NCBI GenBank assembly: GCA_001179505.1
Contig: CDMY01000252.1
Coordinates: forward strand, 1 to 64,000
Direction of reading: 5' to 3'
Length of the DNA: 64,000 nt
Source of the DNA: Vitrella brassicaformis CCMP3155
Taxonomy: Eukaryota > Protista > Chromerida
Part shown: in pieces, positions 15,107 through 53,463 of the stretch
Position numbering within the stretch: position 1 is the stretch's first letter
How the letters are laid out: each line of letters starts with the position of its first letter
Notes under the pieces: model-generated
What the model was told of the DNA's origin: nothing
The model's input: the letters and a program-made list of their open reading frames with translations, nothing else
Databases searched by the model: none
Made by a program: the position numbers and the translations under genes

Positions 15107-15406
15107 NNNNNNNNNNNNNNNNNNNNNNNNNNNNNNNNNNNNNNNNNNNNNNNNNNNNNNNNNNNNNNNNNNNNNNNNNNNNNNNNNNNNNNNNNNNNNN
15201 NNNNNNNNNNNNNNNNNNNNNNNNNNNNNNNNNNNNNNNNNNNNNNNNNNNNNNNNNNNNNNNNNNNNNNNNNNNNNNNNNNNNNNNNNNNNNNNNNNNN
15301 NNNNNNNNNNNNNNNNNNNNNNNNNNNNNNNNNNNNNNNNNNNNNNNNNNNNNNNNNNNNNNNNNNNNNNNNNNNNNNNNNNNNNNNNNNNNNNNNNNNN
15401 NNNNNN
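15107..15406. other. Assembly gap (300 N placeholder)
   Basis: Exactly 300 N flanked by G-runs. Confidence 0.99.
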
Positions 15407-15934
15407 AAGGGGAGGGGGGGAGGGGAGGGGGGTGCGTGAAGGCATCGTGTGTGTGGATGGATGGATGGATGGATGAATGGTGGCTGTGGGTGGGTGGGAA
15501 TTACTGCTCAGTCAGGTTGGCCGTTTTTCAATCCGCGTGCGGCTCTGGGCGGCCTGGCCAGGCCAATCCGCACTCGAGTCATTGAATCTAGTGAGCGGTG
15601 TGTGCATGTGGGTGGGGGTGCGTGTATGTGGGGTGGGTGCATTGATGGCTTTATCTACCTGGAGAAGGGAAACCGACGAGAGTTGTGAGCCTCTACGCTC
15701 ACCCAGCTCTCGTGTGTGGAGTGGAATGGACAGACACGTGCATGCGGCATGTGTGGGTGTGTGGGTGTGGTTGGGGGCTCGCGAGCTGGCTGGCTGGGTG
15801 CATATCTCTACCTATCTATCTCTTGTCTATCTATCGCTCATTGGTCTACCTCCCTAGGTACCTACATTTGCGTATTTGCGTGGGGTGACTGAATGACACG
15901 GACAGGGCAGGTGGCGGGGGGGGGGGGTGGGGGG

Positions 15935-16234
15935 NNNNNNNNNNNNNNNNNNNNNNNNNNNNNNNNNNNNNNNNNNNNNNNNNNNNNNNNNNNNNNNNNN
16001 NNNNNNNNNNNNNNNNNNNNNNNNNNNNNNNNNNNNNNNNNNNNNNNNNNNNNNNNNNNNNNNNNNNNNNNNNNNNNNNNNNNNNNNNNNNNNNNNNNNN
16101 NNNNNNNNNNNNNNNNNNNNNNNNNNNNNNNNNNNNNNNNNNNNNNNNNNNNNNNNNNNNNNNNNNNNNNNNNNNNNNNNNNNNNNNNNNNNNNNNNNNN
16201 NNNNNNNNNNNNNNNNNNNNNNNNNNNNNNNNNN
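15935..16234. other. Assembly gap (300 N placeholder)
   Basis: Exactly 300 N flanked by G-runs. Confidence 0.99.
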
Positions 16235-16797
16235 GGCGGGGCTGGAAAGCCGTCCGTGGACACAAGCAATCACATGTACACTAACCAACTGACTAACTCT
16301 ACCCTGGCTGCGTACTTGGGCCCACACACCAAAGCAAACACGTGGGCAATTTTCCTATCATCCCTCCCTACGTGTATATGTTTTCTCTCTCATCGAGCAC
16401 GGCGGTCGATTCACCTCACCCGCCCACAATATTTCCTCTCCTCTCGACGGGCCATCGAATGATGTCTGGGTGCCATGGCCAGGCAGCCATGCGCTCTCAG
16501 CCGACGGTCGGTGGCTGAGAGCGCATGGAGAGAGACGTCGGTAGGGGAGAAGTGGGTGGAACAGACAGACAGACAGACAGGCAGCCAGCCGTCCGTCCAT
16601 CCATCCATCGTATGTATCGTCACATCACATCACACACGTACAACTTGCTTCAGTTTGTGTTCTGTGCAGCCAGTCGGTCGGCCGGCCGCTGTGCCTCTGC
16701 CCCCACGGCGTGAATCGGCTGGCGATCCCTTGACAGAGATCGGCGTCGTTTAACGTCCAGGACGTATTGGTGCAGTGGCCGGCTGCGAAGGGCCTCA

Positions 16798-16829
<32 letters not shown>

Positions 16830-17519
16830 CGCTATCGTATGATGACCTCTGATGGCTATGGCCCCTTGTGTGTACAGCGGAACTGGCCAGATGAGTGAAA
16901 AAAAGGACCGGCCGTCAATTGGTGTGCTGCCGTGTATTGGCTTGCTGCCTGGCTGATGGGGTGAGGGGAGGGCCGGGCAGGATGCAGCGGACATTTGAGT
17001 CCTGTAGACAACGGTGAGTGAGTGAGTGAGTGAGTGGGTGCATTGCATCTCTCCGTGTGTGTATATGTGTGTGTGTGTGTGCGTGTGTGAGTTGGTCCTC
17101 ACAACAATGACCCCTTCTCCCTTCCTCCCTCCATCCCTACCTCCTTTTCTCAACTCATTTTTTACCCTGACTGACTTGACGACTCGGTCTCCTTGACTTG
17201 ATGATGGACGAATGCACGTGTGTGAGAGAGACACAGGGTGGGACCACACACGAGAATTGAGACCTGCTTCCATTTGCTACACTCCATACCCCGCAATGAC
17301 TCCGGCGCCACTCCGCCACCCTTTCTGTCCTGTTAACGTGGGATCGACGAACGCGTTCCTTCAGGCATGTGAAAGTGCTTTGGGCGAGTTCGTTCGGCGA
17401 CCACATGTGAACAGGCGAGAGGGAAGCGGAGAGGCCAGACAGACAGACAGACAGTGGATGGATGGATGGATGGGGGAGTGCTCGTAGCACCGTGTGTGTG
17501 GGGGGGGGGGGGGGGGGGT

Positions 17520-17819
17520 NNNNNNNNNNNNNNNNNNNNNNNNNNNNNNNNNNNNNNNNNNNNNNNNNNNNNNNNNNNNNNNNNNNNNNNNNNNNNNNNN
17601 NNNNNNNNNNNNNNNNNNNNNNNNNNNNNNNNNNNNNNNNNNNNNNNNNNNNNNNNNNNNNNNNNNNNNNNNNNNNNNNNNNNNNNNNNNNNNNNNNNNN
17701 NNNNNNNNNNNNNNNNNNNNNNNNNNNNNNNNNNNNNNNNNNNNNNNNNNNNNNNNNNNNNNNNNNNNNNNNNNNNNNNNNNNNNNNNNNNNNNNNNNNN
17801 NNNNNNNNNNNNNNNNNNN
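17520..17819. other. Assembly gap (300 N placeholder)
   Basis: Exactly 300 N flanked by G-runs. Confidence 0.99.
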
Positions 17820-38942: not shown

Positions 38943-40449
38943 GGGAATGAGGGGATGAGGGGTGCGTGCGTGGGGGAGGGAGAGGTGTGGATGGCTGTGG
39001 ATGGACAGGGGGATAGATGGCACGTACAAGACGATCTATCTGTGCATATGTATGTATGTATGTGTGTGTGTGTGTAAAGACAACCAACGCCGCACGAGAG
39101 AGGATGAGCAAGTGCATTTGTTTGTAAGGACAGGAAGAGAGCAAGGGCGGGTCAGAATAGGTCGGTCCGTCGGTCGGTCATGGATGCACGTGTGGGGCCG
39201 CTTCTGCAGGCAGCGGACATACACGTACTTCCGCTCCAAGCCGAAGCCACACCGTGTACCATACCACTATTGTTTTTGATTGACATGTACACTCATCGTG
39301 CGTACGGCTGCTTTTGCGCATCCATCCGTGGGAGGTGTGGTGTGGTGTTGTTTGTCCAAGCTATCTATAGGGGGGCCGGCTGCATGGCATGTACAGATCG
39401 ATACAATGCAAGGAATGCAATGCTCACCCCATCCCATCTCACCCCACCGGCTTTCTTGCCGCATCGCTTCCCACTTACTGACTCACTCTGCTCGTCTGGA
39501 TGCACTCTCGTGCGTGTTGGAAGTGGACAGCACGCGCGAGGGAATGGCCGGCTGTCTACTGTCTTTGTGCATACAATCGAATCAGATGGATGGATGGATG
39601 GATGGCGGGGTTGGTTGCTCGTTCGTTTAGTGAGCTTTCTCTCTCACTCTCAAGCACATCGCTCTCTCTGTGCTTGCTCGCCGCCTCTGGCACTCACTGG
39701 GGCAGCACACAAGTTCCTGACTCAGCCACTTGAGTTGAGAGCATGTTCTGTGTTCTTCTCCACCTGTATGGCCAGGTGATGGATGGATGGATGGCAGCTC
39801 CGCTGGCCGTGGATGGATGCTGCATGTGCATGGCTGGCTGTGTGCAGACAGACCTTCTTGCATGCATGAGGTGTCGGTTGGATTCGACAGCTGATTGATT
39901 TGCCACAGCGTTCAAAACGCTTCGAGCTGCCACACACACAAGTGCGCTCATCCATCCATCTGCCGCTTGAGATGTAATGTAAGGTGGGCCTATGATTCGA
40001 GCTCTCGTGTGGCGTAGATACTTACGTCTCAACCGATCGATGACGGCTCTGCCATGGCCACAGATATGTACACCACTCGTCCATTCAGGTCAGATGCAGC
40101 TGCTGTCTTTCATATGCACATCAAATCTGCACCACGGCAGCTCCAAAAGCTCTCTTGAGGTATCACCACACAGATAGATGCAGCATTTCTCCATTTCTCC
40201 ATCGAATGCACCCATTTTCGACGATACAATCAGCCGAATTTTTGAACCTCGCTCTCATAGTGTCGCCTTCATCAAGCAGTGCCTGCGCTCCCGCGATGTT
40301 GGCAGCCGCTGACCTGATCAGACAGCGGCAAACCTGCATCGCGCGCGAGTACTTCACTTGACGAAGGACGAATACACGAGAGCGGCACGCTTGCCAGCAC
40401 ACCAAGCGCGAAAGCCCAAGTCAGCCATCCATCTAGCCCAGAGCATTAG

Positions 40450-41622
40450 CTAGTAAGTCAGCTCTTGGCCGTCCCACTGCAGGAACCTCCCGTTGTCCTC
40501 TCTGCCAGCCTCCTCCACTATCTTGGCTATTCCAGCAGCGCTCTCGTCGACGGGCAGTAGCGGCTCCAGCGGCGCACCCCCTGCTCGACCCATCTCGGTG
40601 TCGGCCGTGCCAGGATGCACAGAAATGAATGTGATGCCGTCGGTGTCATTCTTGGACTCCTCTAGCGCGAAATTCTTGACCAGCATGTTGGCCGCAGCTG
40701 CACCCATGCACGGACACGCAGACACCACCGACAGATGGGATTCGTTGAATTTTCATGTCGTGTGTCTGAGGGCGAAGCGCACCTTTGGAGCATCGGTAGC
40801 TGGTGATGGAACCCCTTCGGTGCATCGACAATGAGCCGGCGCGCGAGGAGATGACGACCACCAGCCGCCTGGATGACCGCCGCAGTAGGGGTGTGAATGT
40901 CTGGATGCAGTCGAGCACACCGCACACATTGACGTCGAACACGTGCAGCATGGCCGCACGGTCACAGGTCTGGGGGGGATCGCCGTGGACAGTGACGCCT
41001 GACGCACACACAAAGACAAACACGGGGACAGCGGAACAAGCATGCAGCGATGGCCGGACAGACAGCCTCCATGGTGTGTGTGTACCGGCATTGCAGATCA
41101 GGCAGTCGATTGTGTCGATGCCGTCCCTCTCCATGCTCGCCCTGGCAGCGGCAATCGACTCTGAGCTGCCGACGTCAAGCTGCATCCAACACACAACAAA
41201 CAGGTCACCCACATGGACACATAGTGCCGTGATCGGCCTGTTACCGGGTAGACGATGACCCGCCCCTTGCTGCCGTCCTGCGTGCTATTCGTCTTGCATG
41301 AGTCGGCGACCGCCTTGAGCTCCGTCGCACCCTGTGGATCTCGGCATGTGGCGACGATGGTGTGGCCTTTTGATATCAAATGCTTCGTCAGAGCCAGGCC
41401 GATTCCTCGAGAGCAGCCACTTATCAAGATCGTCTGCGTCTGCATCTTTGCTGTCTGCACGTCGGCTGCATCTGGATCTGTTGCAGCAGCTGCTCCAGCG
41501 GCGGCTGCCTTGCAGGCCGGGCGCTTCGCTGACCTCAGCAATGGCGCAGGTGCTGTCTGCGGCCTCAGCTGAATGAAGGCGCTCGCGAGAGAGATGCAGG
41601 TAGGCAGCAGCCACCACCGCAT
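40450..41622 (-). CDS. Short-chain dehydrogenase/reductase (CsgA/C-factor-like) with a bipartite plastid-targeting leader, 4 exons
   Basis: MRWWLLPTCISLASA|FIQLRPQTAPAPLLRSAKRP leader; ISGCSRGIG, CNAG, ISSRAGS, YRCSK, SVHPGTADTEMG, FLQWDGQEL. Confidence 0.9.
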
Positions 41623-43410
41623 TCACACTCCCCATTGAGCTTAGCTCGCAGACGTTTTCGAGCACCGAACCGCTTCTTTTCGCAAATCATGCAGACACTG
41701 CTGGTCACGGGGGCGTCAAGAGGCATCGGCCTGGCTCTGACGAAGCATTTTGTGTTCATGGGCCACACGGTGATTGCCACATGCCGAGATCCGCAGGGCG
41801 CCAAGGAGCTCAAGGCGCTCGCATCCGGCACAGCTGACACGCAGAACGGCATCAAGGGAAAGGTCACTGTTCACCAGGTGGGCAGGAAGACACCAAAAGA
41901 CCCCGGCGAGATCTCCATTTGCTGCACATGTGTGTGGTTGTGGGTCTGCAGCTGGATGTGTCCGTGTGTTTGTCGCAGGCCAGCAGGGCGTCGGTGACGC
42001 CTGTGCAGAAGGCATATATTGTGTCGTTGCAGGTCTGGAGGCGTCCAAGTCCTTCGAGCCGCCCGCAGCGCTCATCCAGACCATCACACACGCAGCAAAT
42101 GTCGTACCACCAAGAGAGACTCGAGATGCCCGCACGCAAGTATGGAGTTTTCGGCCGGCAGGTGTATGAGCCTGACTACTCGAGTCGGCTGGGTGAGGGC
42201 GACTATGACTTCCGATCGAGCCATGGCAGACAGACGGTCGATGCATTCCTTTGTTATCTGGCGGACACTTCTATGTCGATGTTTGCCATCTGTCGATGTT
42301 TGCCTGATGTGTCAGGTCTAGTGACTCACAGAGAATACATGTGTACATATGACACAAACACGATCGATTGTCTGTACACAATGCATGTGCGACACACTCA
42401 CAGAGAGAGCCGCTGATTGTGTCACACACACTCAGAGAGCACTGACTCACTGCCGCAATCACAGACAAGAGAGAATCAGCAAGTAAGCGCGAGACCCGTC
42501 CGGTGCTGTATAGAGGTCGCAGCCGTCCCCTGGACCTCCTCCACCATTCATGCATCTTTTCCGCCTCTCTTCCGCCTTCTCAGCACTCTGTTCTCGCTTT
42601 CCCTCTTCTCGTTCTCTGCTACCTGCACTCTCTGTGTCTCATGACTGGACTCACACACTCCGCCACAGTGGGCACAACAACACCAGCGTCCTTCTGCTCG
42701 GCGCAGGTGTGTGTGTTGCTGCGTTTGCGTCGGGTGACGCGCGTCCTTCTGCTCAGTGTGACTCGGTATGTGTGACTGAGGGGAGGAAGAGTGGACATAC
42801 ACTGTCAGTGTCACTGTGGCTGTGTGTATGTCTGTGTTGTCTCACTCTCAGGTGCCCTGTTTGTGTGACCAGACCCAAGTGAGCGTCAACTCTACCTTGG
42901 GCAACAATGAGGTCCACCACACACACACACTCACACACACATACACTCAACTGACATGTCTCTTGCAGGACATCACTTGTTCACTGTGTCTCTCTTCATT
43001 GCTTGTCAGTTTGTGTTCCTGCCGGAGTGTGACACCGTACGCACCAACCTGCTCAAGAGAGCTCAGCGCCTCACAACTCACCACAAGCACATCGAGGCAC
43101 CCGACGTGAGATAACTGGAGCTCGCGCCTGAGGAGACACACAACTCACGTCGGGTGTGTTGTGTGTGTTTGTGTCTCCTCAGGCGCGAGTCCGTTCTGAG
43201 GGTATCAGTGCTCATCATGCCCACACCAGAGCATGGCAGGCGGAGTCGGGCTTGACAGACCGCACCATCACTACATGCGCCAAGTCGTCCGTGTGTGCAA
43301 CCGACCGACTCGTCGCCAACCAAGCGCTCAGCTCCCGCTCGGTCGGTGATCCACTCGTGTGTTGGTTGGCATGGCATCAACACATGTGTTGTGTGTTTCT
43401 TTTTCTGCAG

Positions 43411-44711
43411 GTGTTTGATGCGTGGATTGTCAAGACGACCAAGCGCACCGACTCATCCAAGGCCGCACAGCCCAACCCCAAGTCGGTGTCCCACAAGGCC
43501 ATCCAGAAGCGTCAGAGAGCAGCAGCAGCAGCAGCCCCCCAGGCCACAGCTGCAGCAGCAGCAGCGGCGTCTGAGGAGAAGGATGATGACCAGCCCATGG
43601 CCGTTGACCCACCAGCAGCAGCAGCAGCGGCAGCATCCAAGTCACCGCTGCAGCTGGCATTGGAGCAGACGCAGTCCGACGGCCGTGTCATCCGCCGCAC
43701 GAATGACAACGAGGCCGTGGCCCTACCCGGTATGGCCAGATCAGCCACACCGGGATGTATGTGTACTGTGTGGATGGGTGTTGTGTGCAGCATGGGTGGA
43801 GCTCGACCCACTGTTCCATCCGCAGGCCACCCGGTGGGAAGACGACGCCTCTGAGGAGGACGACGCGGCACCACACCTGCCCGCAGAGCAGGGCGGCAGG
43901 CGGGTCCCCGACGATCGCACTCAGTCGGAGTTCCGCGCCTGGGGGAAGCACCTCTGCACCCGCGTACGACGAGTGGGCAGCACGGCTCAGCAGCCGCACT
44001 ACTTCTGCACAGTCGCTGAGGTGAGCGATGTTGTGGGGCGCGGGGGGGGGGGGGGCGNNNNNNNNNNNNNNNNNNNNNNNNNNNNNNNNNNNNNNNNNNN
44101 NNNNNNNNNNNNNNNNNNNNNNNNNNNNNNNNNNNNNNNNNNNNNNNNNNNNNNNNNNNNNNNNNNNNNNNNNNNNNNNNNNNNNNNNNNNNNNNNNNNN
44201 NNNNNNNNNNNNNNNNNNNNNNNNNNNNNNNNNNNNNNNNNNNNNNNNNNNNNNNNNNNNNNNNNNNNNNNNNNNNNNNNNNNNNNNNNNNNNNNNNNNN
44301 NNNNNNNNNNNNNNNNNNNNNNNNNNNNNNNNNNNNNNNNNNNNNNNNNNNNNNNNNTTGGGGGGGGGGGGGGGGGGGGGGGCGTGTGTCCGTCTGACTG
44401 CTTCTGTCTATGTGTGTGTGCTCCAGGTGGATGATCTCTGGTCGGATTTCGAGGTCTTGCGCACATGGTCTCTGGTCCGCAAGCACCCTGACCTTGTGCG
44501 CAAGGCCTTCAAAGACCCGATCGACAACAACACACAATCCGCATTCCTCAAGGCGGTCGGGGCGGTGATGGGGTATACCCAGGTGCATCGTCTCCGCCAC
44601 GGCTACTCGTGGAACATAGGGACGACGTGCGCCAACACCAACGATGCCACCGGCAGGTATGTGAACCCCTCCCCCTCCCCTCATCCAATCCCTCACACAC
44701 ACACCTCTCTC

Positions 44712-44743
<32 letters not shown>

Positions 44744-46620
44744 ATGTCTGTGTGTCTCAGGCTGGGGGTCTACGCCAATCTCGCCATACGCATCTCGGTG
44801 GCCTACTACAGCCCCGACCACATGCGCAACCTCCACATCAACGACTGGCTGGACGCAATGCGCGCGATACCCTTCATTGCCGCCGTCGGCAATGCGCGCG
44901 GCGACCTCAAGAAAGCCCTCAACATTGGCGTCAAGGCCTACAACGAGCTGGCGACCCGACAGGCCAACATAGACGCCATCTATCGTCACGAGTACAACGA
45001 GACGCGTCGCGCCGCCATGGGTGGGTGGACAAGACAGAGAGCAACACACACAGACGGCGCCACACACACAAGCCCATCACACGTTCTGATGTGTGGCAGG
45101 TGGATTTCGTTTGTCGCGCAGTGAGACCGACCCGTTCACCGCCGCGCACGTGACGCCGAACGCCACTCAAGCGATCTCGATGGTACGTGTGCCGTATCGC
45201 AATCATATCGCAGCATTCGCATCTCAGTCTATGTGTCCGTGTCTATGTGTCTAAGGGTGGTTTCGAGCTGCTGGCGAGTGGGCATCTGTGGCGCGAGTGG
45301 AGCGCAGACCCGTTCTTTGTTGAGCGGTTCGACACGTCCAAGGCCCGCGGCGCATGTCAGCCACGACACACACACACGAAAGGGAGATGAGCGGACTTCT
45401 GTGTCTGGTGTGTCCCTTTATCAGCCAAGTGTCAGTTGTTCCGCAAACTGACTCTCGAGTTCATCAAGTCAGTGCCCAACGCAGACCTCCACAAATCAAT
45501 GAGAGAGGTATGACTGAGATGCGCATCAGACTGACATCCATCAGCCTGACTGTAATTGTGGTGTGTGTGTGAATTGTTGGTGTCAGATTCTCGGTGGAGC
45601 CCCACTCCGCGACGTCGTCAGGCGCACAAGTCATCCAAAGTTCGTGGGCCGTGTTGAGGCCATCTCCAACCTCAGATTCGTCGAGCCACAACAGGCAAGC
45701 TGGACTGAATGGGAGACACAGATGTGTTCTGAATCTGTGGCGCTGTCACGTTCCTGCAGCATCTCTCGTTCTCAACGACGCGGCACTTCCTGCCGAGTGG
45801 CATCCCCCGCATCTACAACAGCGAACTCCGCTTCACCACAACCATCTTCAACTATGGTAAGCCACACAGCAGCGAGCATGGGCATTGAGGACTTTGCTGT
45901 CTGGGGTTTGCAGGTCATGAGGAGGCGTTGACAGTCATGTTGGCGCGCATCGAGAGCCTGACAAGCAAAGGCCTCATCGATGCCACGCCGGTGAGGCAAT
46001 CACACACTGGAGACATTGGTGATGCCTAAGGATGATGCACATTGTCTCCTGTCAGTTCAATTCCCCGTCGGACTTCCCCCACGCTGCCAAGCTGGACAAG
46101 GACAACCGTGAGGGCAAAAAGACGTGAGCAACACAAGGGTGCGACACGCCAAGCTCTGTGAATGTGTGTGTTTCTGCTGGCGTTATATTTGCAGGTATTG
46201 GGGTGTCTACGTGTCATCGACCACCAAGCCCTTCAAGGTTGGCATCGATTTCCAGTCCATCGCGACTCACACCCGCAGAACGGTACGAGCACATAGACAG
46301 ACAGACAGACAGTGTCTCTCCATCTCTCTGTATCCGCCACACAGGTGGCGGAGATTCGCGCGGCCGTCAGTGAGGCCCTCGGTCGACCTGTGCAGGCGGA
46401 TGCCAAGACCACGTGCGTCAAAATGCCCAAGGCCAAGACATCGAAGCAGGCACTGGCGATCGCAGATGTCACCCTCGCACAGCTCAAACGACAACGTGAG
46501 TGTGTGACGGATATACGCACACGTCATCTCACGATGATCATCTCATGATGTGTTGTTGCAGGCATCTTGTTCGGCAAGTCGGAGGCGGGCATAGCTCACG
46601 TCGCAAGTCTGAGATCCTGA
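43411..46620 (+). CDS. Element-borne multi-exon gene (>=12 exons; 5' exons probably from ~42099) with a tyrosine-recombinase-like motif
   Basis: High-GC3 exons with canonical splice sites; AFLKAVGAVMGYTQVHRLRHGYSWNIG...GRLGVYANLAIRISVAYY across intron ~44657-44760; stop TGA 46618-46620. The recombinase call rests on the motif only. Confidence 0.6.
44058..44357. other. Assembly gap (300 N placeholder) inside the insertion
   Basis: Exactly 300 N flanked by G-runs. Confidence 0.99.
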
Positions 46621-47878
46621 GCAGTGTCGGTGTACGTGTGGATGGCGTGTTGTCTACACGTGTGGACGGTGTGTACATATTCAGACCGTACATAAAGCAT
46701 TCCTGTTGAACAGGTCATCGAGTAGCCTGTGGCCGTCGGGTACACGGATCTGTGTGCGTGGTGCACTTGCACATCGAGGATGTGTTGAGCCGTCAGTCCA
46801 TCAAGGATGCGTTAAAGAGCGTCCAGAAGGAGGGCATCGACACAATCGACTGCCTGATCTGCAATGCAGGTCAACAACACGTCAGCGCACTGTCACTTTC
46901 TTTGCCGCATTCTCACGTGGCAACTGTCTGTGTGTGTGCAGGCATAGCCACTGAGGGTCACCCCAACGACTCGGCACAATCGTGTGACCGAGCGGCCATG
47001 CTGCACGTGTTCGACGTCAATGTGGCCGGCGTGCTCGACTGCATCCAGACCTTCACCCCACTGCTGCGCCGCTCCGACAAGCGTCTGGTGCTGTGCATCT
47101 CGTCGCGCCTCGGCAGCATCGAGCTCAACGACACCGGCAACATCACGGCATACCGCGTGTCGAAGGCCGCTCTCAACATGCTGGTCAAGACGTTCGCTGT
47201 GGATGAGGCCAAGAGGCAGATCTCTGACGGCCTGGCGGTGGTGGCGGTGCATCCCGGCTGGACTGACACGGACATGGGGCGGTCAGGGGACAGGAAGCCC
47301 CCCCTGCCGCTCAACGAGTGTGTGGAGGGCATCGCCAAGCTGATGGCCGAGTGCAGTGCCAAGGACAGTGGCAAGTTTGTGCAGTGGGATGGGCAGGAGC
47401 TGCCATGGTAGAAAGGTTCTGGGCTGGGCTGCTGGGCTGCTTGAGAGTTTTTTTCTGTCTAATTAGAGAAGGGAGGCGCTCTCGTGTGTGTGTTCGTCCT
47501 TCATTCAGTGGCCTTCCAGTTTGCGATCTCGGTTTGCCGGTGTCTGATCAGTTCAGCGGTTGCCAAGATCGCCGAGTGTGGGGCCAGCTTGATGAAGGTG
47601 ACACTATGAGAGCGAGGGAAGGAAGCTGCATCTACGCGTGCACCCGTGTGGTGAGAGCTCAAAGAGCTGCATGTGTGTGATGTGCACTGCAACTCACTGG
47701 ATGGATGCCGTGGCCGACTTGCCAGCATGTGTTGATAGAGGAGCCAGAATGTATGTGTCCATAGAACATGCACGAGGACTGCCAGCACGTGCGCAACTCG
47801 CATGAAGATCTTCCTCCGCGATCAGACGTGGGGGCGTTGGGGGCGGAGGAAGACGCGACTCAGATGTGGGGCCTCGCG

Positions 47879-50537: not shown

Positions 50538-51516
50538 TCATTTGGCGGGGCGGGCGGGGCAGCAGCAGCAGCAGCAGTGGCCGCAGCCACACAGGGGGTT
50601 GACCCACCAGGGGCACATGTGGCTCTCGTCGCCGCCGCCCGCCTCCTCCCCCTCGATGACGACCTCCCTGGCCTCAGGTGCGGGCGATCCCTCGGTGATG
50701 CTGGTGTGCTGGGAGGGCTCCTGAGACGTGTGCTGCTGCGGGGTCGTGGGGGTGGTGTCGCCGCTGCTGGTGGGGTTGGCCTCTTTGAAGGCGTCGATGG
50801 CGGCGTCGACAGCCAGGCCTCGCACCTGTGCTCCGCCTGCAACAGCTTAGCCGCCTGGGCCTGCTGCTTCATCTTCTCCTCCTCCGCCCTCAGGAGCTCC
50901 CGGATCTCCTGCCGCCTCTTCTCCAGAAAAGCCTCCTTGGCCTCCAGCTCCTGCCGCCTCTTCTGGGCCCGCTCCTCCTGGGCCCTCTTGAGCTCCCGGC
51001 GCTTCTCCGCGATCGCGGCCTTCCGGGCAGTCTGCCTCTCGTGGAGTTCCTGGCACGTGGCCCGACGGGCCTTGCGCTCCTTGGCGAGCTGCAAGCCAGA
51101 TGGACACCAAGGGAGAGAAGACACACACACAGATCTTTCACTAGCGCATGCATCCCCGCTCTCATCGCCATACGTACCGGGTGTGGGCGTCCTAGGCTTC
51201 CCTTGGCCCCCTCCTCCCACTTGTGCACCCTCTCGAGCAGGTCGCGGGCCTCCTTCAACGCTACGAACGCGCTGCCGTCCCCGCCCTTGTCGGGGTGTTT
51301 GTAGTCGCCGGACTGCACACACAGCCAGCACATTCAGCCAGCCACCAGCTCTCACGCCCGCCCCCAGTGCACGTGTGGACGTAACAGCGCCTTCTTCTTG
51401 TAAGCGTTCTTGGCCTCCTCAAACTCCGTGAACCACTTGACGCCCAGCGTCTCGCTGGCGGCCTGGGCGCCACGGAGGACTCCTGGCTCGAGCTGAGGGC
51501 TGCTGCAGTTTGCCAT
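50538..51516 (-). pseudogene. J-domain (DnaJ-like) protein copy A, probably degenerate
   Basis: EAKNAYKKKAL...YKHPDKGGDGSAFVALKEARDLL. The first intron donor reads TTACGT where copy B has GTAAGT, and a 1-nt deletion near 50828 shifts the frame relative to copy B. Confidence 0.65.
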
Positions 51517-51993
51517 GATGGATGCACCTCAACAGCCAGACTACCCTGATATACACACACCCAGCAGGCATGATTGATCAGAGGGCAGTGGAGTGCAGCC
51601 ACGTGCTGTGCCTGACCTCTTGCTGAGTCAGCGCGAATGTCTGTTGCTGTGTCGGCGGGTATCTGGAGCCGTGGTGGAGGTGGTCGGGCTGGTTGGGGTA
51701 GGAGGGAGTCACCCACGACGGGAAGCCACTGCCAGACACTGACAACGAGTGGAAGCGAAACACACACACTCTCTCTCTCTCTGTGTGTGTGTGTGTCTGT
51801 GTGTGTGTGTGTTATCGCCACGTACCAATCGGATGACTGAAGTCCATGCGGAAGGTTATCTCCGGCTGCCCGATGACCCGGGGCTCGTACAAACGCCTGC
51901 CGACCACACACGACAAATACTCATATGGATCCCCTCCCTCCTCGGCTTCCTGTGTGGCCTACTGAATGATCTGATTGTCGGGGAGGCACTCAT

Positions 51994-53003
51994 CTATCGG
52001 GTTGAATGGATGGAGCCCACACGCCACTGATTCTGACCCACATGCACCACAACACACACACGCATACAAATCAGACATATAGACACACATACACGTCTTG
52101 ACTTACCTCCCGAGCGGCATCTGAACAGCGACAGAGGGCCACGAGTCGGACCTGGAGCGTACCCATGGCATCCGCCGCGTACGTCGCCTCCTGCTGCTTC
52201 AAACCGATCGCCACCTGCACGCCGTAACGCCAAACCACACACACATACCCACGGTAAATGGACGGTGGTGCTGGTGTGCTGGGAGGGCTCCTGGGGCGTG
52301 TGCTGGGGGGTCGTGGGGGTGGTGTCGCCGCCGCTGGTGGGGTTGGCCTCGATGAAGGCGTCGATGGCGGCGTCGACAGCCACGCCTCCCACCTTGACCT
52401 CCGCCAGCAACAGCTTAGCCGCCTGGGCCTGCTGCATCATCTTCTCCTCCTCCTGCGCCCTCACGAACTCCCGGAGCTCCTCCCGCCATTTCTCCGCAAT
52501 CGCGGCCTTCTGGGCCTTGAGCTTCTCGTGCAGCTCGTGGCACGTGGCCCGACGCGCCTTGCGCTCCTCGGCTAGCTGCAAGCCAAATAGACACCCAGGG
52601 AGAAAAAGCACACACATAGATCTTTCAATTGCGCATGCATCCCCGCTCTCAGTGGCATCTGTACCGGGTGTGGGCGTCCTAGGCATCCCTTGGCCCCCTC
52701 CTCCCACTTGTGCACCCTCTCGAGCAGGTCGCGGGCCTCCTTCAACGCTACGAACGCGCTGCCGTCCCCGCCCTTGTCGGGGTGCTTGTACTCGCCGGAC
52801 TGCACACACAGCCAGCACATTCAGCCAGCCACCAGCTCTCACGCCAGCCCTCATTGCACATCCGGACTTACCAGCGCCTTCTTCCTGTATGCCTTCTTGG
52901 CCTCCTCAAACTCCGTGAACCAGGCGACACCCAGCTTTTCGCTAGCGGCCTGGGCGCCACTGAGGTCTCCTGGCTCGAGCTGAGGGTTGCTGCAGTTTGC
53001 CAT
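51994..53003 (-). CDS. J-domain (DnaJ-like) protein copy B with coiled coil
   Basis: MANCSNPQLEPG...EAKKAYRKKAL|SGEYKHPDKGGDGSAFVALKEARDLL, then a charged helix; 3' end uncertain. Confidence 0.72.
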
Positions 53004-53463
53004 GATGTTTTGCGACAAAGAGAGGGGACGCCCAGCCTCTCCCCGCCTCCCATCACTCACCCGCCCGCACTAGCTGATCCCGAAGCTGCAAGAGCCGCAG
53101 CGATGGGGTAGCGGACAGAGGCTCTTCAGGCAGCAGCGAATGGATGAAGGAATGGTGCAGCGGTGAATTGCTGTTGAAATACACCGTGCCGGTGAAAAAG
53201 AAAGCAAGTAAGAAACGTCTCCGTCTCTCGAAAGAAAGAAACTCCCGACGTTAATTCTCGCCGGAGAATTGCGAACCTTTTGGTGCGAGCTTATATTCGA
53301 CAGTGTCTTGTTGTCGGGCTTCCGGCGTTTCCAAGGCTGCACAGGAGATCCGGACATCCCCACAGCCCCCCTGTGTGGTTCGGTGCTGAGATCTCGGCGC
53401 TTCACTCATCCACGGGGAAACTGCCTGTTGTGTCCCCCTTGGCTTGTGCTCCTCTGCTGCGCC

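Follow-up and report, generated by a model that had tools for sequence, protein, structure and literature searches.

In a stretch of 64,000 nucleotides of the genome of the marine alga Vitrella brassicaformis CCMP3155 (contig CDMY01000252.1, positions 1 to 64,000 of the forward strand; hereafter the window), an insertion of 4816 bp with 8-bp direct repeats at its borders splits a gene for a short-chain dehydrogenase/reductase (SDR). On balance, we favour the reading that this insertion is a single-copy Crypton-like element, and that the orphan gene inside it, here called the inner gene, likely codes for a very divergent tyrosine recombinase (YR) of the Crypton type, which would have inserted the element. 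The inner gene contains the motif HRLRH...LG...YY, which the earlier note on this DNA had likened to box II of the tyrosine recombinases. The annotated product of the locus, P0002 (1087 aa), is listed as Vitrella brassicaformis CCMP3155 in the protein collection; it starts and ends with SDR sequence, and the Pfam family adh_short matches it in two stretches. Residues are numbered as in P0002. The split gene (SDR-B), its intact paralogue (SDR-A) and the insertion are located as follows:

40450 to 41622, reverse strand: SDR-A, the intact paralogue and our reference for the unbroken gene (open reading frames (ORFs), self-BLAST, RNA contigs)
41689 to 41961, forward strand: 5' part of SDR-B, with exon 1 (41689-41877), an intron and the first 10 nt of exon 2 (mapping of P0002, RNA)
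41954 to 41961, forward strand: left copy of the 8-bp direct repeat, GGATGTGT, either the core of the target or a target-site duplication
41962 to 46777, forward strand: inserted element, 4816 bp as assembled, including a gap of 300 N, without terminal inverted repeats (TIRs)
46778 to 46785, forward strand: right 8-bp direct repeat GGATGTGT
46786 to 47411, forward strand: 3' part of SDR-B (mapping of P0002, Pfam SDR match)
41952 to 42396, forward strand: chimeric SDR-B transcript running into the element (spliced contigs of runs X10, X12 and X16)
42027 to 42224, no strand assigned: piece near the left end with a copy of ~90% identity elsewhere in the genome (contigs)
46741 to 46748, against the left end at 41961 to 41968: 7-nt subterminal inverted match, significance not established
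46770 to 46784: palindrome CACATC-GAG-GATGTG overlapping the right repeat, significance not established

Cutting out 41962-46785 brings the halves of SDR-B into register with SDR-A, with 57 of 80 nt in agreement at shift 0 as against 10-27 at twelve other shifts. The insertion cost no host bases, and the 8-bp repeat is perfect, the octamer having a frequency of ~9e-5 per position in the window. SDR-A is 68-75% identical to both SDR-B halves by self-BLAST. The paralogues are placed head-to-head (40247-41408 vs 41720-47617), and their similarity reaches into the 3' flanks. A total of 19 sequencing runs matched the locus, and the contigs of 8 were examined; figures from them refer to the matches listed. 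Runs X10, X12 and X16 are taken as RNA from their spliced contigs, no run having RNA on record. SDR-A has spliced contigs of ~1320 nt in X12 and X16, and exon 1 of SDR-B shows the RNA joint 41874>41949 with GT..AG borders. The chimeric transcript ends at 42392-42396, ~20 nt short of the first in-frame stop at 42416, and may be a non-stop mRNA; in this region (41654-42396) transcription is driven by the promoter of the broken SDR-B. The neighbouring intact SDR-A may explain why the break in SDR-B is tolerated.

An insert with such borders might also be an ordinary lineage-specific gene joined to another DNA fragment, put in by microhomology-mediated repair or by reintegration of a circle, with the HRLRH...LG spacing arising by chance. 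GT-rich repeats are frequent in these introns, the left end resembles the end of a captured intron, next to which lies a piece that is repeated elsewhere, and the palindrome at the right junction would suit templated end-joining. The inner gene is also single copy, host-like in composition (GC 57.5%, and 0.77 at third codon positions, GC3), and has no match to a profile or a homologue. We still regard this origin as unlikely, since a clean 8-bp repeat without loss of host bases is the outcome of a site-specific crossover, and since both the ESM Atlas and a home-built profile, described below, pick the YR clan.

The ends of the element carry no TIR, the best inverted local match between them being only 11-12 nt long. 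They could also stem from a transposon of another class, either cut-and-paste or HUH, in which case the 8 bp would be a true target-site duplication and the transposase would have escaped recognition. Duplications of 8 bp are typical of several DDE superfamilies, and the 7-nt subterminal inverted match is a further point in favour of this origin. Replitrons too have short terminal direct repeats (PMC10288648). Such a transposon nevertheless seems very improbable to us, as there is no TIR and the inner ORF, the one ORF in the element, has no match to a reverse transcriptase or transposase family in Pfam. Moreover, the HUH/HUQ and YxxK motifs that define the Replitrons and HUH enzymes (PMC10288648) do not occur in residues 160-907, and the Atlas favours YRs.

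The inner gene was delimited by mapping of P0002 and by RNA, and consists of the following parts:

42641 to 43729, forward strand: predicted 5' exons, with a candidate ATG at 42641 and exons at 42852-42911, 43010-43105, 43183-43341 and 43411-43729 (GT..AG borders)
43790 to 46620, forward strand: 13 exons of the inner ORF, covering residues 370-907 of P0002 and 6 further residues to a stop at 46618-46620
44021 to 44426, forward strand: intron holding the assembly gap at 44058-44357 (poly-G edges), with no exon inside
44657 to 44760, forward strand: intron of 104 nt within the motif, GT-AG

The start of the gene at ATG 42641 is predicted. Mapping of P0002 backs all of the predicted 5' exons except the first, and the only RNA listed among them covers 43410-43595; the last of these exons (43411-43729) is Ala-rich and of low complexity. 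Further downstream, an X10 contig of 1847 nt joins 43820-44018, 44425-44653 and 44758-45019 with no extra letters, and ends with 46562-46862. The 13-exon chain with GT/GC-AG introns that was built from P0002 and reproduces it, read to the first stop, predicts 1847 nt for 43820-46862, which is the length of this contig, and the intron inside the motif is therefore real. The earlier note had allowed for an exon hidden in the gap at 44058-44357. However, the X10 contig passes from base 199 to base 200 over the gap, and the equal lengths account for all 1847 nt, so that no exon lies there. X12 and X16 do not cover the motif exons and are uninformative on them. The gene contains ~17 introns; 45695-45759 is the single GC-AG intron, and the others are GT-AG.

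The stop codon at 46618-46620 ends the ORF, so that the C-terminal SDR part which the annotation fuses to it in P0002 is an artefact. We reject the fusion protein, as the transcript remains unspliced past the stop at 46620 and over the right junction as far as at least 46862, and the last joining intron of P0002 was not seen in RNA. The ORF extends 375 residues beyond the first Tyr of the motif, in line with the several hundred residues of the earlier note. In its last 100 residues (46195-46620, P0002 816-907), strand-like and helix-like stretches alternate in a pattern that by eye is of the ferredoxin or RRM type; the only match near these residues was to Fae in Pfam (E 0.019, under the cut-off).

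The residues of the motif, and those that may complete it upstream, are placed as follows:

43916 to 44008, forward strand: candidate box I Arg412, candidate Lys422 and candidate Cys442-Thr-Val (tentative assignment)
44526 to 44600, forward strand: a helix, then H500-R-L-R503-H504 (box II-like), with HRLRH at 44586-44600
44762 to 44809, forward strand: L524-G525-V526-Y527...Y538-Y539, with LG at 44762-44767, Val at 44768-44770 and Tyr-Tyr at 44804-44809

Counted from the first His of the spliced motif, LG stands at positions 25-26, as it does in XerD, and Tyr at 39-40, where XerD has it at 36; the reading of the earlier note is correct in these spacings, in the Val after LG (V526) and in the usual context of the preceding helix, which aligns with XerD and Cre. 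The H-x-x-R of box II is present (H500, R503), and the YR profile aligns here. When the 748-aa inner protein was shuffled 20,000 times, H-x-L-R-H arose in 0.54% of cases, and together with LG at the exact spacing in none (0/20,000). These figures overstate the rarity of the motif since the pattern was selected post hoc, and scanning very many windows will yield some such motifs by chance. The distance from His to Tyr is 36-37 in the 73 Xer-like references and 36 in Cre, as compared to 39-40 here, and Flp has a longer His-Tyr spacing. Cre has G313-G314-W315 with Y324 nine residues on, and a register of this type, with G525-V526-Y527 as G-x-W and Y538 11 residues on, appears to fit the inner protein better than that of XerD. 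H500 and R503 would belong to box II, Y527 would stand for the Trp of G-x-W, and Y538 or Y539 would be the nucleophile.

R412 and K422 are candidates for the upstream catalytic residues. R412 sits 88 aa before His500, the spacing in the references being 82-112 aa in 71/73 sequences, and K422 follows just 10 aa past R412. In IntDes and IntCTnDOT the first Arg is known to be shifted (PMC8138268), and shifted or substituted pentad residues occur in some YR groups (PMC8138268, PMC10104507). As judged from these residues, a catalytic pentad is plausible.

The protein could instead be derived from a YR and be catalytically dead, binding DNA like the Ndc10 and DUF3504 proteins, the segment having been mobilised by a different enzyme or at a time before this one decayed. 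NDC10_II is the best named match in the Atlas, the His/Trp position has another residue and box I is hard to assign, and domesticated Crypton YRs are described as losing catalytic residues (PMC3212892). The gene is also intron-rich, expressed and single copy, and a diverged copy of one exon in sediment run X17 adds a weak hint (5 synonymous vs 3 changed codons among those listed). All DUF3504 genes have, however, lost the Tyr and the second Arg (PMC3212892), while His, Arg and Tyr residues that may be suitably placed are present here, and the gene lies within a sharply bounded insertion in a disrupted host gene. A dead enzyme is for these reasons quite improbable in our view.

A home-built profile and the ESM Atlas lean towards a recombinase. 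Of two profiles made, the first was built from 73 Xer-like sequences, and the second from 29 non-redundant Xer-like sequences and 14 from E. coli/P4, 43 in all. The 43-sequence profile scored 5.4 bits at residues 456-516, a value reached by 6/1000 shuffles, while the reversed protein scored -1.1; the score had risen from 1.8 to 5.4 bits with the greater diversity of the profile. Of 1049 ORFs from the six frames of the window, that with the motif ranked highest, at 7.3 bits (E 0.19), ahead of a runner-up at 5.8. For residues 400-700, the top score in the Atlas (0.87) was shared by a cluster with NDC10_II in 25% of its members and two unnamed clusters, followed by clusters with Phage_integrase in 10% (0.86), with DUF3435 in 93% (0.85) and with DUF3504 in 54% and Phage_integrase in 61% (0.85). 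The best named matches fell in one family or clan in 10/10 cases. What weight this result carries, it carries because the YR clan was named beforehand and because eukaryotic Crypton-related clusters rank first.

A winged-helix DNA-binding domain of the D5-primase or RFX type, with HRLRH at the start of the wing, was also considered for residues 410-535, which resemble the D5 C-terminal pattern by eye. We give this assignment next to no credence. A 29-domain Pox_D5 profile gave no match and did not place the motif frame in its best 8, and no winged-helix family appeared among the Atlas rows shown, RFX being covered by the Pfam scans only.

Several results weigh against a Crypton-type recombinase. 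V526 stands where 73/73 Xer-like references have His after LG; these have His and then Tyr at +9, as compared to Val and Tyr at +12/13 here, and the XerD register that the earlier note had proposed therefore fails beyond LG. R412 is one residue off the R-x-x-E of box I, with S-E-F coming one residue later, and the profiles did not align R412 or K422. The Xer-only profile had its best site at the motif, but the score of 1.8 bits was reached by 28/1000 shuffles and is at chance level. The alignment of the 43-sequence profile spans just the helix, HxLRH and the next helix, leaving box I, Lys and Tyr outside, and hhalign gave a probability of 7.7%. The Atlas scores are below 0.9, with 110/256 features shared, which by the calibration of the tool is the level of a lead; one third of shuffled proteins likewise reach 10/10 in one clan, and the signal may stem from the same HRLRH motif and hence not be independent.

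Curated families and sequence searches point the same way. P0002 residues 400-907 matched only themselves among 1.84 billion representatives, and again in word searches of proteins of 597-1903 aa and 30-596 aa; residues 160-399 were searched through family scans only. The whole protein matched no YR family in Pfam, in PHROGs or among the best 25 NCBIfam rows at E<=10, where only SDR was found, and 11 inner exons had no match in Pfam. With the HMMER filters on, no match at E<=10 was obtained to PF00589, PF12012, PF11917, PF16787 or a topoisomerase. LWREW (residues 648-652) was rejected as a GCR1_C site, as residues 606-705 reached at best 0.80 in the Atlas with no GCR1_C row, and there was no PF12550 match. 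No second copy at >=85% identity was listed in three DNA-like runs, and neither a second full copy nor an empty-site joint was listed in the 8 runs. The one hint of an empty site, in X17, comes from one contig at a depth of 2.3 whose loose letters were not seen. AlphaFold2 modelling of residues 400-907 from the single sequence gave a mean predicted local distance difference test (pLDDT) of 35, and a Foldseek search with this model, which had no match at E<=0.001, is meaningless at that confidence. The divergent recombinase family suggested by the earlier note stands in part: a discrete element exists, and the Atlas and the home-built profile lean towards YRs, but there is no curated profile, sequence match or fold behind it. 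Overall, the sequence evidence agrees on a tyrosine recombinase but is weak, and the recombinase fold is a prediction.

Some other candidates were tried and rejected. A metagenome match (40% over 57 aa) came down to a seed of 8 residues in a phage-like contig; phage and plasmid tblastn matches at E 2-9 (sigma factor, ISNCY, others) were at chance level, and the single match in a PDB sequence search (E 0.57) was unrelated. A scan of viral contigs with the motif exon gave 0/7 candidates. Among the eukaryote-type YR references sought in prokaryote genomes, DUF3504 was found in 0/5 and 0/401, and NDC10_II in 1/401, under the cut-off; the Cre relatives found were all 99-100% identical, and P4 alpha relatives did not enter a profile.

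The contigs also inform on copies and relatives of the element. In three DNA-like runs, which are unspliced, single contigs span the inner gene at flank-like depth, which is not a copy number, and with no variant letters. The piece at 42027-42224 behaves differently. In X1 and X4, a second contig at 42027-42203 differs at 16-19 positions, X2 shows its variant letters as well, and a 36-nt core (42189-42224) is common to several contigs, with a summed depth of 138.8 at 42194 in X1 vs ~22. The piece may be a captured fragment or point to related elements. The sediment run X11 has the same left junction with zero differences. Sediment run X17, from another study, has identical pieces and also inner-gene pieces at ~88-90%, including a copy of exon 45587-45694 with at least 5 synonymous and at least 3 changed codons among the differences listed, and with the frame kept. 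In a diverged SDR-B-like contig of X17 the alignment covers 46787-46956, its left limit lying 2 nt outside the right repeat, and beyond this limit 50 letters are unmatched, a hint that X17 represents a lineage with the inner gene elsewhere and an empty SDR-B site.

Among known systems, the Cryptons (CryptonF/S/A/I; Kojima and Jurka 2011, PMC3212892) share with the element a single YR-like gene, in its case a putative one, the absence of TIRs and short terminal direct repeats, and in its termini the element conforms to them. CryptonF and CryptonS are described as mostly 2.5-6 kb long and low in copy, with repeats of 5-9 nt (PMC3212892); the 4.8 kb and low copy of the element lie within the Crypton range, and its nearest Atlas clusters are Crypton-related (NDC10_II, DUF3504). 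It differs in that its repeat is 8 bp and perfect, most of those given in PMC3212892 being 5-6 bp, one 7 and one 8/9 and imperfect. The inner protein also shows no sequence match to known YRs at E<=0.001 and no detected GCR1_C, the C-terminal domain of CryptonF, and it has a long C-terminal region outside the known families and a gene with ~17 introns. In Chlamydomonas, CryptonF-1_cRei offers a model for the mechanism: recombination takes place between the motif at its terminus and a target that matches it, and a single copy of the target remains after clean excision. It is shown to be active and multi-site with a 5-bp CAYCG core (PMC9977147), whereas the core of the present, putatively mobile element is the 8-bp GGATGTGT.

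The Starship captains, with DUF3435, are divergent YRs of eukaryotes, confirmed as such through predicted structures and mutation, with direct repeats that come from a match between terminus and target, and they tolerate variation of Tyr for His (PMC10104507). DUF3435 is an Atlas neighbour of the inner protein at 0.85. However, Starships are giant, fungal and cargo-carrying (PMC10104507), while the element is 4.8 kb long with one gene and no DUF3435 match in Pfam. With XerD and Cre, the inner protein has in common the H-x-x-R, the Gly at position 26 from His and the preceding helix. It differs from them in lacking His/Trp at 27, in having Tyr at 39-40 rather than 36 and box I out of register, and in that no core-binding domain was recognised.

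If the element is Crypton-like, its excision by the recombinase would yield a circle containing a single GGATGTGT core, and the core of the circle would cross over with a chromosomal GGATGTGT, here in exon 2 of SDR-B, to give a copy at each end. The ~375 C-terminal residues, which belong to no known family, would supply the binding of DNA ends. Excision and integration are described in this way for the Cryptons (PMC3212892), and the model is backed by de novo events in Chlamydomonas (PMC9977147). Going further, and with more doubt than belief, one may envisage an active, previously undescribed chromerid lineage of YR transposons, with an enzyme so divergent that all profile and sequence searches miss it, Tyr in place of the box II His/Trp, an out-of-register box I, a new 375-residue C-terminal DNA-binding region and an 8-bp GGATGTGT core with short inverted arms.

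The DNA of the window is intron-rich and eukaryotic, and the genes around the locus are of ordinary host types, such as glycosyl hydrolase, LRR, aldo-keto reductase, Myb and kinase, among others (family scan of 125 of the 487 frames of >=75 aa in the window). Three more 300-N gaps are clustered at 15107-17819. On the reverse strand, 50693-51520 and 52263-53007 form a tandem duplicate of ~88% identity, coiled-coil-rich and with an HPDK motif that recalls a J-domain; the two frames scanned had no Pfam match.

No chromerid Crypton was described in the literature listings that were searched, although Repbase and subscription journals, outside the search, could hold one. The transposable element table of the Vitrella genome paper has no Crypton row and gives 0 bp for DIRS (PMC4501334), Additional file 1 of PMC3212892 has no alveolate element, and the available text of PMC12130899 and PMC10288648 makes no mention of Vitrella. 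This is thus apparently the first Crypton-like element noted in a chromerid. For the databases, the 1087-aa P0002 (41689-47411) needs correction, as it wrongly fuses the broken SDR with the ORF of the element. If our reading is true, the element would hold a YR that is undetected by any profile, with a precise 8-bp crossover core and an empty site that can be reconstructed, and the still poorly tested model of Crypton excision and integration would become directly assayable. Transposons with Crypton-type recombinases would then extend to free-living relatives of the apicomplexan parasites.

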